From: an uncultured Bacilli bacterium
GTDB lineage: Bacteria > Bacillota_I > Bacilli_A > RF39 > UBA660
Assembly (NCBI GenBank): GCA_944363935.1
Contig: CALVVT010000073.1
Span: 4,226 to 68,225 of the forward strand
DNA length: 64,000 nt
Reading direction: 5' to 3'
Part shown: positions 28,763 through 36,219 of the stretch, piece by piece
How the letters are laid out: each line of letters starts with the position of its first letter
How positions within the stretch are numbered: the first letter of the stretch is position 1
The notes under the pieces: model-generated
Database searches by the model: none
The model's input: only the letters and a program-made list of their open reading frames with translations
Told to the model about the DNA's origin: nothing
Position numbers and translations under genes: made by a program

Positions 28763-30322
28763 TTAAAGTACAGTTAAAATTGCACATACTAATAAGATAA
28801 TTAGGAATACTAGTAAAGCAAATTTCCAAATGTATTTAAACCATTGTTTATAAGATACATCAAAGAAACTTAAACCAGCAATTAAAACTACACTAGTTGG
28901 GAATATTAACATTGCAACTGCATAAACTGATTGAATTAATAAACCAGCAACTGATAATGCTGATGCATCAAAACCAGTAACATATGTAGCCATACCAGAT
29001 AGTAAATAATATAAATCATTATAGAAGAAACTTCCAAATAATGAAGCAATAGCTGTTGTAATTACATTAAAGCCATCTGATAATTCGAATGTTTTAGCAA
29101 ACATTGTATCAACAAGTGTTCCAGTTCCACTATATGAAGCTTGATAAAGTACATATAGAATTACACTAGCAAGACCAGCATAAATAGCAGTTGGCATCAT
29201 TTTTTTCATGCCTGAAATAAATGCTTCGACATAGTTATGTAAACTTAAACGATATAACCAAGCAATAACTGCTGAAGCAATAATCATCATGATAACAAAT
29301 TCTGTATTACCCCAATAACCTATTTGAGTAATACCGCTAAATAAGTGTTCGAAAATTGCAAAATCACCTATTTTAACACCCATAATATCTTCATATAAAT
29401 CATTAAAGAAATTAATATCAAATGAATAGTACCAGTTATACATACCAACAAAAGTAACAATAAACATTAAAGTAAATATTACTGCAAGTGGGGCGATACT
29501 GATAGCTTTTTCACTGTTAACTTTTTTAACTGATTTACTAATAGCCATAGCTTTAGTTGTTTTTTTAGTAGTTTTTTTCGCAGGTGTTTTCTTGGTTGTT
29601 TTTTTAGCTACTTCTTTTTTCGCTGAAGCTTTTTTAGCCGGAGCTTTTTTAACTTCTTTTACTTCTTTAGGTTCTTCTACTTTTTTAACTGTTTCTTTTA
29701 CAGTTACTGGTTTAGTAAGATTTTTACTAAATTTAAGTACAAAAACGATAAAGATAACTGTAATCACTACTAATAAAATAATTTTCGCAACTAATTGGTT
29801 TGTCATATCAAGTGATAAGATATTTTTAGTATAACCTGAAATATTAAAACCAAAAGTTGAAGCTGCTGAGCCAATTAAAATTGAACCAACAGTTGAAGCC
29901 ATAGCCACTACTTTGGTAAAGTTTAATTTAAACAATACCATAGCTGATAATGGAACTAAAACAAATAAAGGTACAATAAGTCCTGTTACTGAAGAAAGTA
30001 AAACATAGAAAATTATTGTAATAACTAAAAATGTTTTAGCTTTTTTACTAAATTTACCAGCTAATTTGTCAGTTAATTTATCTAATGCTCCTGTTTTACT
30101 CATAACTCCGTATAAACCACCAATTACCGCAAAAACAACGATATAAGTAGCAAATACAAGAACGGTTGAAACAGGAATACTAAATAAATCAAAAATTCCA
30201 ACTGCATCGATACCATTTGTTTCTAATTCTCCACTAGTATAGGTACCTACTGGAATAATCCAACTTAAAATAACAAAAATTAAGAAAGATATTCCGATAG
30301 CTTTTAATAAATTCCTTTTCAC
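28763..30322 (-). CDS. YfcC-family (AbgT/DcuC-like) membrane transporter with a Lys/Ala-rich insertion loop
   Basis: 519 aa polytopic protein with a YfcC-like N-terminus (IPVGTYTSGELE). The central loop is KKAPAKKASAKKEVAKKTTKKTPAKKTTKKTTK. Confidence 0.5.
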   Translation of the reverse strand: MKRNLLKAIGISFLIFVILSWIIPVGTYTSGELETNGIDAVGIFDLFSIPVSTVLVFATYIVVFAVIGGLYGVMSKTGALDKLTDKLAGKFSKKAKTFLVITIIFYVLLSSVTGLIVPLFVLVPLSAMVLFKLNFTKVVAMASTVGSILIGSAASTFGFNISGYTKNILSLDMTNQLVAKIILLVVITVIFIVFVLKFSKNLTKPVTVKETVKKVEEPKEVKEVKKAPAKKASAKKEVAKKTTKKTPAKKTTKKTTKAMAISKSVKKVNSEKAISIAPLAVIFTLMFIVTFVGMYNWYYSFDINFFNDLYEDIMGVKIGDFAIFEHLFSGITQIGYWGNTEFVIMMIIASAVIAWLYRLSLHNYVEAFISGMKKMMPTAIYAGLASVILYVLYQASYSGTGTLVDTMFAKTFELSDGFNVITTAIASLFGSFFYNDLYYLLSGMATYVTGFDASALSVAGLLIQSVYAVAMLIFPTSVVLIAGLSFFDVSYKQWFKYIWKFALLVFLIILLVCAILTVL

Positions 30323-30443
30323 TTTTCTCTACCTCCCAGTGTAATTATATCAAAAAATCCTTATAATATAAAGTTTTTTTGAAATTTTTCATAAAATTTT
30401 CAAAAAAAAACACAGTCTACCCCATTAATTGCTGTGATAATAA

Positions 30444-31550
30444 TTAAAATTTATTTTTATATAAAAAATATTTAGTATTAGCGACCATAAAATAACCATT
30501 ATAACTAGCTAATACTTGTTTATAATTAGATTTTTTTTGTTTTTTCAGTCGTTTTAATTTTCTTTTCACTCGTTTTTTAGTTTGATTATTAAGTAAAATT
30601 AATAATTTTTTTTCTTTAAGTTTAAACTTATATCCTAAAAAATTTACCCCTTTATTTAAATCATATATTTGGGTTTTTTTATTTAAAGATAACCCTAATT
30701 TTTGAACCTTTCGATTAATCTCTACTAAACACTCTTTTAAAAATTCTTTATTATGATGAATTAAAATAAAGTCATCCATATATCTTATATAATATTTAAT
30801 TTGTAATTTTTCCTTAATAAAATGGTCTAGTTCATTTAAATAATAAATGGCTAAAATTTGACTCGTTTCATTACCAATTGGCAACCCTTTACCTTTTTTA
30901 TATCTAGGCAAATAATTTAGTTCTTGAAACTTACAAAAAATATCTGGGATGCTTTTCTGTCTTAATTTTTCTTTTTCTTTAGCTATTAAATTATCAATCT
31001 GATTATTAATATATTTAGCGTCAGTACTGTCGATAATATTTTTTAAAACATCAATTATTTCAAAATCAGGAATATCTTTAATTAATTTTTGTAATAAAAT
31101 TTCATGATTAATATTATAAAAATACTTACTAATATCACATTTTAAAACGTATATTTGATCATAATTTTGTTTTAATTTATTAATATATTTTTTTATATAA
31201 TAAATACCTGCTTTAGTACCTTTACCACTTCTAGTAGCAACATTTGTTTCCACTAATTTAGGAATTAAATAAGGAATTAAAACATATTTACTGATCAAAT
31301 GATTAACTATTTTATCTAAAATTCTTTCACTCATAACTATTCGGTATTTCGGTTCAGATATTAAAAATAAACTATATTGTCCGTGAGTATAAGTTCGAGA
31401 CTTTAATAAGTACAAAATTTTAGTTATATTAGAAGAAAAAGCCAGTTCAAATCTAACTAACTTTTGCTGATGACAGGTATTTAAACGAATTTTATAATAA
31501 ATTTTCAGTATTTTATCTATTGAAAGAAGATTATCATAAGTTATTTTCAT
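30444..31550 (-). CDS. Diversity-generating retroelement reverse transcriptase
   Basis: 368 aa RT domain. Motifs: EPKYRIVMSERILDKIVNHLI, the DGR-specific GLPIGNETSQILAIYYLNELD (I/LGxxxSQ in place of the group II QG) and YIRYMDDFIL (YxDD). There is no maturase or endonuclease domain. Confidence 0.9.
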   Translation of the reverse strand: MKITYDNLLSIDKILKIYYKIRLNTCHQQKLVRFELAFSSNITKILYLLKSRTYTHGQYSLFLISEPKYRIVMSERILDKIVNHLISKYVLIPYLIPKLVETNVATRSGKGTKAGIYYIKKYINKLKQNYDQIYVLKCDISKYFYNINHEILLQKLIKDIPDFEIIDVLKNIIDSTDAKYINNQIDNLIAKEKEKLRQKSIPDIFCKFQELNYLPRYKKGKGLPIGNETSQILAIYYLNELDHFIKEKLQIKYYIRYMDDFILIHHNKEFLKECLVEINRKVQKLGLSLNKKTQIYDLNKGVNFLGYKFKLKEKKLLILLNNQTKKRVKRKLKRLKKQKKSNYKQVLASYNGYFMVANTKYFLYKNKF

Positions 31551-32182
31551 TAACTTTTAATACTTTCTAAAACATATTTATCGTTAATTTTTTTATAATT
31601 ATAAGTTTTTAAAGTTCCATTATCTAATATGTTATTTAAATTATCTTTATTATATTCACCGATATCATTATTATCTAAATTATAAACATTATTATCTTTT
31701 ATATAAGCAATTTTTACATTTAATTCTAATTTATTATTATCATTAGTATAACCATATAATTTAGACACATATTTATTTTCACAAGAATACTTTTCTCTAG
31801 TAATAACGTCATTATCTAAATTATAAATATAACCATTATAAACATAATTTTGAACATTTGGCGCTTTAACATCACCAAGGATTTTTTTAGTACTTGTTTG
31901 ATAATCTTTTAAAGAAATTTTATCTTTTAATAAATTATCCTTATTCATTTGACCAAAAATTAAATCTAAAAGACTTTTATCTTCTAATTTATCGACATTT
32001 CCATCATTAATAACCGAGCATTCATTAACAGCAATCGCATCATACAAATCTTCAGCAACCTCGTGTTTTACTAAATTGCTAAAAGTTTGCGCTAGTTCTT
32101 TATTTTTTACTATCAATATTAATACTGTAATTAACACTATAATAATCAATAAAATAATAATTATTACTTTTTTATTCTTCAT
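31550..32182 (-). CDS. Membrane-anchored hypothetical protein encoded between avd and the RT
   Basis: 210 aa with an N-terminal TM and an Asn/Asp/Tyr-rich ectodomain. It is translationally coupled to avd (11-nt overlap) and to the RT (shared nucleotide). Confidence 0.5.
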   Translation of the reverse strand: MKNKKVIIIILLIIIVLITVLILIVKNKELAQTFSNLVKHEVAEDLYDAIAVNECSVINDGNVDKLEDKSLLDLIFGQMNKDNLLKDKISLKDYQTSTKKILGDVKAPNVQNYVYNGYIYNLDNDVITREKYSCENKYVSKLYGYTNDNNKLELNVKIAYIKDNNVYNLDNNDIGEYNKDNLNNILDNGTLKTYNYKKINDKYVLESIKS

Positions 32183-32525
32183 TACTAGTCTCCCTCTTTC
32201 TTAAACCATTAATCATTTTTCTTATTTCAATTAAAAATCTACCAATAACTGTAAACTGGTGATAACTTATTATTTTTTTATCCAATGAAACTTTTGTATA
32301 AAAGTCAAGCATCGAAAGTTCTACTGATAAATCTTTTAAATATTTATCTTTAATTCGTATACTAGTATTAATGTTATAAGCAAAAATGTTTTTAATTAAA
32401 GAATAACATGTTTTTTCAATATTGTTTTTTAATACAATTTCTTTTTTAGGATAATTAATAAGTAATTTATTAATATAATTAATTGTTTTATAAGAATTAT
32501 TTAAAATTTTAAAATTATAATTCAT
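32172..32525 (-). CDS. avd: Accessory variability determinant (Avd-like four-helix-bundle protein)
   Basis: About 118 aa starting at MNYNFKILNN with RBS GGAGA (the ORF track extends it to 32558). The size, basic composition and position between TR and RT match DGR Avd. Confidence 0.65.
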   Translation of the reverse strand: MNYNFKILNNSYKTINYINKLLINYPKKEIVLKNNIEKTCYSLIKNIFAYNINTSIRIKDKYLKDLSVELSMLDFYTKVSLDKKIISYHQFTVIGRFLIEIRKMINGLRKRETSNEE

Positions 32526-32767
32526 TTTTTCTCCTTCAATAAGTGTGGCTGGAGACAAAAAGTCTCCACCACTAATATAGCGATAGTTATATAAATACTT
32601 TAATAGTCATATAACGTCTATATTATCTTTTTAGGCTTTAATCCAAGGAATTAACCTTGTTTCCAATCTAAATTAGATTATTGCTTTCGCAACTACTTCC
32701 TCTGGTTATGAGCCGTAGCCAAATAACATCACGGTTCATTAGTAAATAATCACTAATTGTAGTAGGA

Positions 32768-32877
32768 AATTGGGCGGACGCCGTTGCTATTCCAAGTATT
32801 AGTGTTAGTGAGCTCGCCCGTGGCAGTCACGTACATCTCATTAGCATTGAACCAATTGTTGAAGTTCGACGGCGACA
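32768..32877 (-). repeat. DGR template repeat (TR)
   Basis: 110 bp, 95/110 identical to the VR. On the coding (minus) strand it encodes SPSNFNNWFNANEMYVTATGELTNTNTWNSNGVRPI, rich in AAC/AAT codons, and ends in GGCGTCCGCCCAATT. Confidence 0.92.
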
Positions 32878-32919
32878 AAACTGTACAAACTTATAAGGTT
32901 AATCCCTGTATGCGACGTT

Positions 32920-32949
32920 GGGCCAAAAATGAAGAGTCATTTTTGGCCC
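32920..32949 (-). promoter_or_regulatory. Perfect 13-bp stem / 4-nt loop hairpin between the target gene stop and the TR
   Basis: GGGCCAAAAATGA-agag-TCATTTTTGGCCC with no U-tract. A second 11-bp hairpin overlaps the stop codon at 32973-32999. Confidence 0.7.
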
Positions 32950-32981
32950 ATCTGCTCGCTATTTTGTTTTCGTAGTTGTTT

Positions 32982-35899
32982 CTACGAAACAACAAATGGG
33001 TCTTCAATTGTTCCGCTTCCAGTTACTGTTAGATTTTCAGAATTTAGATTGATAACTGGGCGGACGCCGCGGCTATCCCAAGTACCAGTGAAAGTGAGCT
33101 CGCCCGTGGCAGCCACGTACAGCTCATAAGCATAGAACCAATTGCTGAAGAACGACGGCGACATGGTCCAGTATGTAGTTCCCGTATATAAATAATATAA
33201 AGAATTTACTGATCCATTTATTCCACCAGCCATATTTACTTCGTCAGCAGTGATTAAACCAACTGAATAATTTAATTTCTTATTTCCTCTATTTACACTA
33301 AAACTATCGTTTTCTTCACACATTAAGGTTGGTCCAAGTTTTCCTTGAGAGGCCCAATTCAAAAATCTTTCATATCCATATATTGTTGGATTTATTCCAT
33401 ACCCTAAATTATTATAAGTTCCACTATTTTTAGAAGATTTATTTCGGTTATTACAGAATACTGCATCTTTACTTATTTTATCATTAACACTTGTTAAATT
33501 ACTTTGATACCAACTATCTAGATAATCTTTCATAGTACTATCATTTACATTACTATGTGCTTCTTCCAAACTTGTCGTTCCATAAGCTTTTGCTTTTACT
33601 GTCATTGAAGTACTACTATTATATTTTGTTGTATAAAATAGTCTTTGACATGAAGCTGAAGCCGAAGTACTAAAACAGGTATAATATCCTACTTCATTAT
33701 TTGAAAGGGTTCCTGTATGTAAATCTCCTGATAATTTATAACCTCTACTGTTTTTATCAAAGGTATAACTTGTTCCAAAATAATATTTCGCACTGCTTGA
33801 AAGACTTGTATAAACAAACGTCATATCACCACTATCTGTTTCCACAAAATTATTAGCGTTTCCATACATATATCCTACATAAGTATTGTCATTGGTATAT
33901 GAATTAAAAGCACTTGTTCCTACCTGTCTATTACTACTTGCTTCACCATTGGTATAAGGTGTGGTTCCATCATATATCATTCTTATACTTCCATCACCAT
34001 TTACTCTGATTATTCTCCAGTACATATTATTAAATTTTACATAGTTTCCCCCAACACTTCCGCGGTAATAATATGTCGTTCCATCATTATCACTTCCAGC
34101 ATACATTCCAACTCCAGTTGTATCATAACTAGCGACTGACTGGGTATAATCATATTTTGTCATATTATAAGTTATCTGACCAGTTGAACTATTTGTACTT
34201 GTCGTTACATTAGTTATTTTGTATAAAGTCGTACAAGAAACATTTGTAGTTAAACAAGTATAATAATCTCCACTACTATAATCTATGCTTGATGGATCTT
34301 TTAAACTATAGCCTGTTAAAGTATATATTCCTGTTGTTTTATTAAAAGTATAGCCTGTTCCAATATTATCATAATATATATGACTATGAACCGTTGTATT
34401 ACTTGCATGAACTTCATTATATGAAGCACTTGGACTTGTAACCATAAAGTTTGGATTACCTTTACCTTCTATCTCTTGTTTAGCTAGTTCTATATTACTT
34501 TCTTTAGCTTCACTGGCTATTATACAATCTCCAAAATTATCTATATCATTATGTTCACAAAATGCTGCATGTCTTATTGTTGTTGTTTTGGCCATCGTTT
34601 CTGATATATTTCCAGCTTTATCTTTTACATATACTGTTACTAAATAATCGCCTTCTTCAAGAGTAGTAAATGTATAGTTTGGATTACTAGTTTCAACATA
34701 ACTTTTACCCCCATCTTTACTATAATAGTATGTAGATACTCCGCTTTCTTTATCATTTGCATCTACTTCAATAGTCATTGTGTCATCGTCTGGAGTTACT
34801 ATTACATTTGTTACTTCTGGAATATTACTATCAACATTATAATTATCTGTACATTTAATTTCTTCATTTCCTACTACATCTACGGCTTTTACACAGACTT
34901 TTTGACTATCTTTATTACTAGTTATTTGAACCATCCCTTTATTATCTGTAAGTTCTAGTTCTTTATCTGGAGTACAATCACTATTTCCTATACAGTATAA
35001 AGCTTTAGCTACTTTATCATTATCACTAACTTCAACATTTATATCAAGTCCCTTATACCAATTATTTTCACCTTTTATATTATCTCCCATTACTAATAAT
35101 ACTTTTGGTTTCGTTTTATCTAAAGTTTTAAATTTTGTACTAGAAAATACTACTTCTCCTTCTTCGTTTTCAGCTTTAACATAAAGCATATATTCTGTAT
35201 TTGGTTTAAGATTATGAATAGTATAACTATTATTATTTGTCTCATACCATTTATCATTATCTAATGAAAAATAGTATTTAATAGCATTTTCGGCGGTTAT
35301 TTTACTTGTTACACTTGTTTCATTTGGATTTACTTCTAAATCACTTATTTTAAATCCTTCTACTTCTATACTATCTGCATCTGAAAAATTAGTACTATTT
35401 CCTTTTTGAACATACTCTAATACTGTAGAAAAACTAAACTTTGTTTGTTCAGGTTGACTAGTTATATCTTCATTATATTTTAAAATAACATTAAACTTTT
35501 TTTCTGTTTCCGATAACAATTCTTCTTTAGCGGTTATCCCTTCTACCGAATATATAAGAACGTTTTGTTCTGGCGCATTTATTTTAATACTATCTAAAAC
35601 AGCATCTAAAGTTCCTTTATTTTCAACCGTTATTTCATAAGTTATACTATCTCCTGGCGCATAAAAGTTAGCTGTCATATTAGCCGTTAAATCATTCCAA
35701 TTTGGCTCTGTAGCATTTTCAGCATTGCCTTCGGTCTTTATAGTTTCAACATTTGTTATTCTAATATCCCAAATACTTGTTATATTACTGGTACCGTTAA
35801 TATTTAGTTTACTACTAAAAGCGGCATACCCTATTCCCATTAACATTAATAAACAGCATAAACCTAATATAACTACGTTGTTCTTTTTTCGTCTATGCA
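32982..35899 (-). CDS. DGR target: large secreted surface protein of the GIGYAAF family with repeated beta-rich modules and a C-terminal VR-bearing (C-type-lectin-like) domain
   Basis: About 972 aa from MHRRKKNNVVILGL (RBS AAGGAGG; the ORF track starts 34 nt upstream at 35933). N-terminus LMGIGYAAFSSKLNINGTSNITSIWDIRITN. The VR is 24-60 residues from the C-terminus. Confidence 0.85.
33055..33164 (-). repeat. DGR variable repeat (VR) at the 3' end of the target gene
   Basis: Encodes SPSFFSNWFYAYELYVAATGELTFTGTWDSRGVRPV. The 15 substitutions relative to the TR are all at TR coding-strand adenines (for example AAC to TTC, AGC or CGC, and AAT to TAT, GGT or GAT). It ends in the GC-rich GGCGTCCGCCCAGTT. 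Confidence 0.92.
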
Positions 35900-36002
35900 T
35901 AACATACCTCCTTATTTTATTTAAGTATAGCACATTTGTTGGGGGTAATGCAAGTATCTTATTTAGAAAAATATTATTTTATAAAATTATGGTGGTGGTA
36001 CT

Positions 36003-36212
36003 ATGATAAAAATAAATATCGAAGAACTTCTTAAAGAAAATGGAAAAAGTAAATATTGGCTTCGCCAAAAGATGAACATAACTTCCAGAAACCTTAATAA
36101 AATTATTAGAGGTGAAACTAATTCTATTTCTTTCAAATATATTGAAGAATTTTGTTACTACTTAAACTGTACTCCAGGAGATTTAATAACTATTGAAAAA
36201 GACAGGCCCTAG
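36003..36212 (+). CDS. XRE/Cro-type HTH regulator (69 aa), divergent from the DGR target gene
   Basis: KYWLRQKMNITSRNLNKIIRGET helix-turn-helix. Confidence 0.7.
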   Translation: MIKINIEELLKENGKSKYWLRQKMNITSRNLNKIIRGETNSISFKYIEEFCYYLNCTPGDLITIEKDRP

Positions 36213-36219
36213 CCTGTTT

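Follow-up and report, generated by a model that had tools for sequence, protein, structure and literature searches.

A conserved, covarying stem-loop past the stop codon of a diversity-generating retroelement target gene in gut Bacilli is a candidate target-site hairpin

The only cis-elements known to serve integration in diversity-generating retroelements (DGRs) are the initiation of mutagenic homing sequence (IMH) and a nearby GC-rich hairpin, and the route by which the mutagenised complementary DNA (cDNA) is integrated is still unsolved. The BPP-1 element needs a hairpin or cruciform located 3′ of the variable repeat (VR) (Guo et al. 2011, PLoS Genet, PMC3240598). A stretch of 64,000 nucleotides (nt) from an uncultured Bacilli bacterium (contig CALVVT010000073.1, positions 4,226 to 68,225; hereafter the window) carries a complete DGR with all its elements on the minus strand, and two inverted repeats lie between the VR at the 3′ end of its target gene and the template repeat (TR). 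A first inspection of the letters, made without database searches (the sequence-only reading), had described both as strong hairpins and had proposed a target-recognition structure. Does either of them mark the site at which this element homes? The analysis reported here suggests, with moderate confidence, that the repeat beyond the stop codon (hairpin A) is the cis-acting target-site hairpin for mutagenic homing in this family, i.e., the counterpart of the BPP-1 stem-loop 3′ of VR, and it shows the repeat that overlaps the stop codon (hairpin B) to be a weaker, lineage-restricted second structure.

Hairpin A occupies positions 32919..32950 of the minus strand and reads T GGGCCAAAAATGA CTCT TCATTTTTGGCCC A on the sense strand, with 14 perfect pairs and a 4-nt loop at 32933-32936. 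The 13-bp perfect stem and 4-nt loop that the sequence-only reading had drawn at 32920-32949 (GGGCCAAAAATGA-agag-TCATTTTTGGCCC) were exact, and a T-A pair (32919/32950) extends the stem by one. Six of the 14 pairs are G-C; the conserved core, AAAATGA-CTCW-TCATTTT, is AT-rich and the outer stem is the part that covaries. The hairpin starts 103 nt past the VR end and 31 nt past the stop codon and ends 41 nt before the TR, so that its proposed placement, displaced from the VR and between the end of the target gene and the TR, also stands. When the region was folded, hairpin A gave -21.6 kcal/mol as RNA (z -7.6) and -15.9 kcal/mol as DNA on either strand (z -8.7 and -7.2), and none of 200 shuffled sequences was as good in either case. 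All other perfect inverted repeats of the window are shorter, and first-order Markov simulations predict 0.017 stems of at least 14 bp there. Closer to the VR, there were only weak, non-conserved, large-loop folds in the C-terminal coding tail, and no canonical hairpin. A scan of positions 30000-34000 with Rfam 15 found nothing relevant, its sole match being a chance-level sroH located elsewhere. A small open reading frame (ORF) starting at an ATG in the 5′ arm (MTLHF...) was considered and rejected: the peptides of relatives are alike only within the hairpin, and in L038, L042, L050, L061 and L073 (loci of related elements are given as L numbers) the ATG is swapped for compensated GCG/CGC or other pairs.

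Related elements were collected by a reverse transcriptase (RT) alignment search, which gave 80 loci from species-representative genomes, and a self-comparison script mapped adenine-biased TR/VR pairs in 42 of them. In these 42 loci the VR-bearing target lies upstream of the TR, and the TR upstream of the RT. Hairpin A was present once per element in more than 40 related gut Bacilli DGRs and at the same relative position as in the window. In 35 loci with mapped TR and VR, the core hairpin was located 2-37 nt past the target stop and 79-109 nt (median 93) from the VR end, and the distance to the matching TR ranged from 34 to 2206 nt. Stems among the homologues were of 11-14 bp (median 13), and the C-terminal tail between the VR and the stop was of 22-29 codons. 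In L022 the hairpin seemed to hold its distance to the VR despite an early stop; this was a frame-calling artefact, and the usual C-terminal tail is readable there.

The covariation was analyzed in 42 distinct sequences, each from a different locus, which align without gaps. Two-sided changes were observed at all 14 pairs, with 141 compensatory cells, and 89.8% of the cells were paired, vs 65% in shuffled alignments and 36-53% when the partner was slid; since the sequences are related, the shuffle statistics, like the Fisher test used below, overstate independence. Four outer pairs took all four Watson-Crick types with zero unpaired cells, and the outer stem variants included GGGCC/GGCCC, GAGTTC/GAACTC, GCCACC/GGTGGC and CGTGTGG/CCACACG. 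Hence the stem is kept as a structure despite sequence change, with an inner part of 7 bp whose sequence is more than 85% conserved. The loop and these seven loop-proximal pairs were 85-100% conserved amid flanking non-coding sequence that could not be aligned. The loop was of 4 nt in 42 of 42 sequences (CTCT in 23, CTCA in 14, CTCC in 2, ACCT in 2 and CCCT in 1), and its third position was invariably C. In distant relatives the inner stem was replaced, and the structure and a similar loop were kept (AAAGCGA-CTCT-TCGCTTT, TTCGCAA-CTCT-TTGCGAA, AAGACG-CCCT-CGTCTT and TTGCAAA-ACCT-TTTGCAA). A few divergent members were found through a perfect-stem search, and the motif-detected majority was not selected for outer-stem pairing. 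These patterns, far beyond chance, indicate from sequence comparison that hairpin A is under selection as a base-paired, strand-specific element. The conservation and covariation expected of a recognition structure were thus found for hairpin A.

To which part of the retroelement does the hairpin belong? A covariance model built from the alignment gave one match of at least 32 bits per locus in 842 kb, all on the target strand. With the same model there was no copy after the TR of the window or after any of the 2-8 TR-like units in relatives, and no second match anywhere in the window, so that the inverted repeat follows the VR and IMH on the target and does not follow the TR. In a reverse search, a metagenome collection was scanned with the 20-nt core alone, and the 120 matches fell into two populations. 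Among matches with stems of at least 10 bp and at least 200 nt of upstream sequence, 32 of 39 lie 13-55 nt past the C-terminus of a same-strand DGR target. Of the 66 matches with short stems (7-9 bp), a single one adjoins a DGR-type target, which belongs to a genuine DGR; the matches with 7-9-bp stems are chance occurrences. In about 75 of 76 cases the 4-nt centre faced the same way with respect to the target, and recognition would therefore be strand-specific. In L136, L114 and L173, where the RT is on the opposite strand, the orientation of hairpin A tracks the target. The cassette of these three loci is a variant (L136:1469-3728 in the first of them): target, hairpin A and TR share a strand, and the RT lies on the other. 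All 19 TR/VR mismatches of L136 are at adenines. Furthermore, two loci (L106 and L112) carry hairpin A after a VR-like, adenine-poor segment, and no TR or RT was found within 10 kb and 4.4 kb downstream. Since targets remote from any TR or RT keep hairpin A, it is part of the target 3′ end and not a flank of the TR transcript. A TR flank is also at odds with the wide range of distances to the TR and with the near absence of G·U pairs described next.

Whether the structure is needed in DNA or in RNA was assessed from the kinds of pairs that it tolerates. Among 504 cells of hairpin A, 490 were Watson-Crick, 1 was G·U and 13 were mismatched. For an internal RNA-level control, the RNA hairpin that these elements carry 3′ of the TR, the counts were 217 Watson-Crick, 55 G·U and 14 mismatched cells among 286; the nominal P of 2e-25 for this contrast overstates independence, the sequences being related, but the contrast is still large. 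A G·T pair on one DNA strand corresponds to an A·C mismatch on the other strand, and a structure that has to form in DNA, possibly on both strands, would therefore be expected to covary by Watson-Crick pairs only. The scarcity of G·U pairs points to a constraint on DNA, and hairpin A probably acts at the DNA level; we infer that the structure itself forms in DNA. The control RNA is the spacer 3′ of the TR (32705..32757, minus strand), which is laid out as TTCCTACTAC, SL1 (ATTAGTGA-TTAT-TTACTAAT, 32738-32757), SL2 (GTTAT..ATAAC, 32705-32727) and GAGGAAGTA. Its consensus structure (SL2 plus a 2-bp outer helix) has 8 of 11 covarying pairs with frequent G·U in 26 loci, and no Rfam family corresponds to it. 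By analogy with the BPP-1 spacer it must act as RNA, and it is presumably the element for RT-Avd recruitment and priming. A kissing interaction between the loop of hairpin A (CTCT/CTCA) and the conserved spacer tract GAGAGGAAG was also considered, and it was discarded because the spacer alignment showed no consistent co-variation between loop type and AGAG or TGAG.

If hairpin A is not a homing signal, it could work in the RNA. No promoter-like site was predicted on the minus strand in the target-to-TR interval of the window, so that a read-through RNA would carry hairpin A 41 nt 5′ of the TR; the hairpin is thus probably also transcribed and could act as RNA, and its location 2-37 nt past the stop, upstream of the canonical terminator where there is one, implies the same. 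With its high stability as RNA, it might be a stabiliser in the 3′ untranslated region of the target messenger RNA (mRNA), a site at which processing parts the target mRNA and the TR RNA, or a 5′ protection of the TR transcript. We consider such a role unlikely. The single G·U among 504 cells differs sharply from the 55 among 286 in a true RNA hairpin of the same elements, a generic stabiliser needs no conserved loop and seven inner pairs amid flanks that cannot be aligned, and the targets that keep hairpin A away from any TR show that it is not an element of the TR RNA. It is very improbable that hairpin A is instead an atypical intrinsic terminator lacking a U-tract. It shares with Rho-independent terminators a stable stem-loop just past the stop, and the window has no other terminator before the TR. 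However, as the sequence-only reading had noted, there is no coding-strand T-tract behind either hairpin of the window, and a terminator scan flagged neither. The G+C-rich stem-loop with a directly following U-tract that defines such terminators was not found in hairpin A: in the 35 mapped homologues the stem is never followed by a canonical T-tract, and the nearest case (L017) is T-rich only from 6 nt past the stem. The organism does use canonical terminators (36217..36202, after feoB). Moreover, in seven loci hairpin A is followed after 2-130 nt (15-20 nt in L106 and L112) by a separate canonical terminator with a hairpin and a T-tract, and these loci span at least three hairpin types (L013 and L014; L106 and L112; L101, L108 and L124). 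Terminators do not conserve a loop and inner stem across elements whose RTs are only 50-70% identical, and the Watson-Crick-only covariation of hairpin A is a further difference.

Another explanation takes the palindrome as a double-stranded DNA operator for a dimeric regulator or other host factor unrelated to homing. A perfect palindrome with a conserved inner half-site (AAAATGA/TCATTTT) would suit such a protein; we nevertheless give this explanation little chance, because covariation at the five outer pairs runs through every one of the four Watson-Crick types, which indicates that complementarity is selected rather than a recognised sequence, and because the 4-nt centre is asymmetric and has one orientation in about 75 of 76 cases. 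In addition, no candidate DNA-binding gene travels along with the element, the only unassigned ORF of the cassette (210 aa) being membrane-anchored. Chance inverted repeats in AT-rich intergenic DNA account for nothing more than hairpin B in the register first drawn (z -2.5, 4 of 200 shuffles as good, 3′ arm absent in relatives). For hairpin A, with 0.017 such stems expected per window and with conservation and covariation over more than 40 loci, chance is refuted and was left with a negligible probability.

The homing interpretation itself rests on comparison with known systems. In BPP-1 the structure of the stem matters and its sequence is free, and the loop is critical in both size and sequence; complementation of the loop abolished function, and spacer insertions progressively cut activity (PMC3240598). 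Hairpin A resembles this type in that it lies 3′ of the VR on the target, with none after the TR and one per target ('SL' in PMC12875486), and in that a structural stem with variable outer sequence carries a strict, sequence-conserved and strand-specific 4-nt loop. The constancy of the loop that marks the BPP-1 type was found here as well (4 nt and a C at the third position in 42 of 42, one orientation in about 75 of 76). The hairpins of phage DGRs have 7-10-bp GC-rich stems and GRNA loops and lie 4-34 bp from the VR (PMC3240598). High-confidence GC-rich inverted repeats after the IMH were reported in only 34% of 372 DGRs, with little evidence for terminators (Wu et al. 2018, PMC5758913). The hairpins of nanoarchaeal DGRs (Paul et al. 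2015, PMC4372165) are likewise a lineage-specific variant with a highly constrained loop (a GRA triloop). They lie inside the target gene, a coding overlap that hairpin B shares, and they differ from hairpin A in loop and position and in belonging to archaeal elements. Group IIC introns (discussed in PMC3240598) are retroelements that also use a DNA stem-loop, probably single-stranded, as an insertion landmark, but they insert themselves shortly after a generic terminator hairpin with a U-tract; here the repeat that the cDNA would replace is homologous to it and lies about 100 nt upstream, and hairpin A is specific to the element.

Several observations weigh against the reading of hairpin A as the target-site hairpin, besides the relatedness of the sequences and the lack of a predicted promoter mentioned above. 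Its loop is not GRNA: the sense loop is CTCW (CCCT or ACCT in distant relatives), and the antisense AGAG, TGAG and the like do not fit. Its stem is not a GC-rich one of 7-10 bp, being 11-14 bp long and AT-rich with an inner 7 bp conserved in sequence. Its distance to the VR is 79-109 nt (103 in the window), past the tail and the stop, instead of 4-34 bp. We therefore filed hairpin A outside the GRNA class, as an element that shares the logic of BPP-1 with a different core, loop and distance. A distance of about 100 nt sits uneasily with the BPP-1 results on spacer insertions, unless what the hairpin does is to stall lagging-strand synthesis or open the DNA and not to position a complex. One locus (L122:1446-1471) has an inverted centre, with TGAG on the sense strand, the sole case of its kind. 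Three metagenomic loci carry a second, convergent target-like gene with a VR-like C-terminus and no hairpin A, so that hairpin A is not universal for VR-like sequences. These genes (L108:1873-2307, L101:325-804 and L124:367-774, all on the minus strand) have IMH-like ends, and they are followed only by the shared bidirectional canonical terminator, about 65-100 nt after their VR. The replication argument also has a limit. The GC skew is -0.2 on the plus strand throughout the window, where the minus strand carries 49 of 50 large ORFs, and 39 of 39 related loci have a positive skew on the target sense strand; because of this, the target would be co-directional with replication. DGR editing is favoured when the two are co-directional: the sense strand then serves as the lagging-strand template, and the open state is proposed to be prolonged by the stem-loop (PMC12875486). 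However, GC skew and coding-strand bias are confounded, and the replication orientation is no more than consistent with the model. In sum, the part of the original proposal that stood is a hairpin tied to the target, conserved, covarying and unlike a terminator; the three descriptive features of the phage hairpins were not found in it, and its role in homing is proposed by analogy.

On the reading of hairpin A as the target-site hairpin, the inverted repeat would act in DNA, by extrusion of a sense-strand hairpin or as a cruciform, the sense strand being the lagging-strand template if target and replication run in the same direction. Readout of the 4-nt loop and of the seven pairs next to it would depend on sequence and strand, and the outer stem would serve for stability only. 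The hairpin may then promote homing, as its BPP-1 counterpart suggests, by helping the adenine-mutagenised cDNA to enter the VR, which lies about 100 nt upstream, and it would distinguish the one recipient repeat from the donor TR or, in relatives, from 2-8 TR-like units. A more far-reaching version is tentative, and we think it more doubtful than the target-site role as such: hairpin A could represent a second class of DGR target signal, a sequence-specific licence that the RT-Avd-RNA complex reads on one strand about 100 nt from the site of cDNA integration and that designates one recipient among up to nine near-identical repeats (one VR plus a TR array). If this were true, the hairpin would be a recognition element and not a mere helix-opener, and these loci would offer a natural system for the question of how DGR cDNA finds and enters its target. 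The family shows that a strongly selected hairpin can escape the usual criteria, by being AT-rich, having another loop motif and lying about 100 nt away past the stop, and the true prevalence of DGR target hairpins may be underestimated. The natural compensatory, loop and distance variants provide material to test recognition against mere DNA opening, the TR arrays of relatives sharpen the question of how donor and recipient are discriminated, and a compact, portable element of about 30 nt could matter for engineering the DGRs of low-GC Firmicutes for targeted mutagenesis.

Hairpin B is of a different quality. The sequence-only reading had described it as a strong hairpin of about 11 bp overlapping the stop codon. 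An inverted repeat with a 1-nt bulge does exist there (sense TTGTTTCGTAG-aaacaa-CTACGAAAACAA, minus strand, 32964..32992, arms 32964-32975 and 32982-32992), with an 8-bp AU-rich core of -7.6 to -8.2 kcal/mol. With a z of -2.5 and 4 of 200 shuffles as good, it is weak, so that the description as strong held for hairpin A alone. The 3′ arm of this register, CTACGAAA, was found in no relative, and the register (CGTAG/CTACG) was rejected as a conserved fold, being specific to the window. An overlapping register of near-equal energy, mutually exclusive with it, is the one conserved in some lineages: GTTGTTTC-GTA-GAAACAAC at 32975..32993 on the minus strand (-7.4 kcal/mol as RNA, -6.1 as DNA). Its 5′ arm consists of the last target codons, and the TAG runs from the loop into the 3′ arm, of which it takes the first base. 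It occurs at the same place in L001, L002, L004, L005, L006, L012, L020 and L039, with loops (GTAA, ATAA or GTA) that hold the stop codon, and L012 shows one compensatory change, a synonymous GTT-to-GTG paired with A-to-C. Unrelated hairpins overlap the stop at the same position in the L086 group (atttcttc-GTA-gaagaaat), in L101, L124 and L108 (12-13-bp stems) and in L116 (8 bp). In these lineages hairpin A sits more than 35 nt past the stop, and most lineages have no stop-overlapping hairpin. The role of hairpin B may be auxiliary.

The retroelement that carries these structures is a typical DGR by its parts. The target gene (32982..35933, minus strand) encodes 983 aa with PKD, fn3 and Ig-like repeats and ends in a TAG stop at 32984..32982. 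The VR (33054..33163, 110 nt, minus strand) lies at the 3′ end of this ORF and terminates in the GC-rich, IMH-like GGCGTCCGCCCAGTT, and a tail of 23 codons separates it from the stop. The single TR of the window (32768..32877, minus strand) begins 104 nt after the target stop, and all 15 mismatches of the 110-nt TR/VR pair are at TR adenines. The accessory gene avd (listed ORF 32172..32558, minus strand, probable ATG start at 32525) matches PF22296 (bAvd) with 1.6e-12, and the DGR-type RT (30444..31550, minus strand) matches RVT_1; the gene order along the minus strand is target with VR, TR, avd, a 210-aa ORF and RT. The flanking genes (feoB and a DcuC-like carrier), the GC content (27% in the window) and the strand bias of the large ORFs indicate a bacterial chromosome, and the nearest relatives of the element are in metagenome-assembled genomes of uncultured gut Bacilli or 'Tenericutes'. 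A phage origin was considered and set aside, as the hairpin A core had no match in a viral contig collection. In a second strain (L201), whose RT is 99% identical, the VR differs at 20 of 110 positions, 19 of which are TR adenines; no difference lies in the stretch with both hairpins, and over the whole interval between the VR end and the TR there is a difference of 1 nt. Since nearly all of the VR differences sit at TR adenines and the hairpin stretch is unchanged, the DGR has been recently active with exactly this layout. Between the same two sequences (window 33171-33225, minus strand, and L201:1-610), 7 substitutions are clustered 8-62 nt upstream of the VR/TR homology boundary. The 100 nt further upstream and the 250 nt downstream are almost identical, and the cluster is not explicable by the TR of the window.

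At least two TR-like units besides the VR were observed in 16 of the 42 related loci with mapped repeats, and in 12 of these 16 they form tandem non-coding arrays of 3-8 units downstream of a single VR and hairpin A. Examples are the arrays at L027:3020-5470 (8 units with a period of about 334 nt, each with the spacer structure), L006:2832-4493 (8 units, about 160 nt), L032:482-3690 (7 units, about 400 nt), L022:2588-4205 and L002:3165-3779. Their units have 21-35 adenines each, bar one adenine-poor L002 unit, and share 65-94% identity with the unit that matches the VR. Every array examined had one unit, at a varying position, that matches the current VR with mismatches only or almost only at adenine sites, so that the arrays look like alternative templates for one target. 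No description of tandem TR arrays was found in the searchable literature, which gave only TR variants between strains. In two loci the first unit after hairpin A is different: that of L002 (3165-3278) has 16 A vs about 31 in its sister units, and that of L053 (518-636) has 18 of 33 mismatches to the TR at TR adenines. These units are VR-like though non-coding, and may have arisen by off-target homing into a template unit or by recombination. The motif GGGATTAACCT (32896..32906, minus strand; consensus GGGnYTAATCT) precedes the TR start by about 20-30 nt. In relatives it stands before each of the TR units in an array (e.g., in L007, L018 and L006), travelling with the TR units and not with hairpin A, and is possibly a 5′ boundary element of the template RNA.

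Two further features of the cassette were observed. The 210-aa ORF between avd and RT (31550-32182, minus strand) overlaps both by a few bases and is kept in near-identical strains. It has an N-terminal membrane anchor and no match in Pfam or NCBIfam, which makes a hairpin-binding protein unlikely. In addition, a small hairpin, GGAGAC-TTTTT-GTCTCC (32550-32566, minus strand), is located about 25 nt upstream of the probable avd ATG, and the TTG start of the listed avd ORF falls within it.

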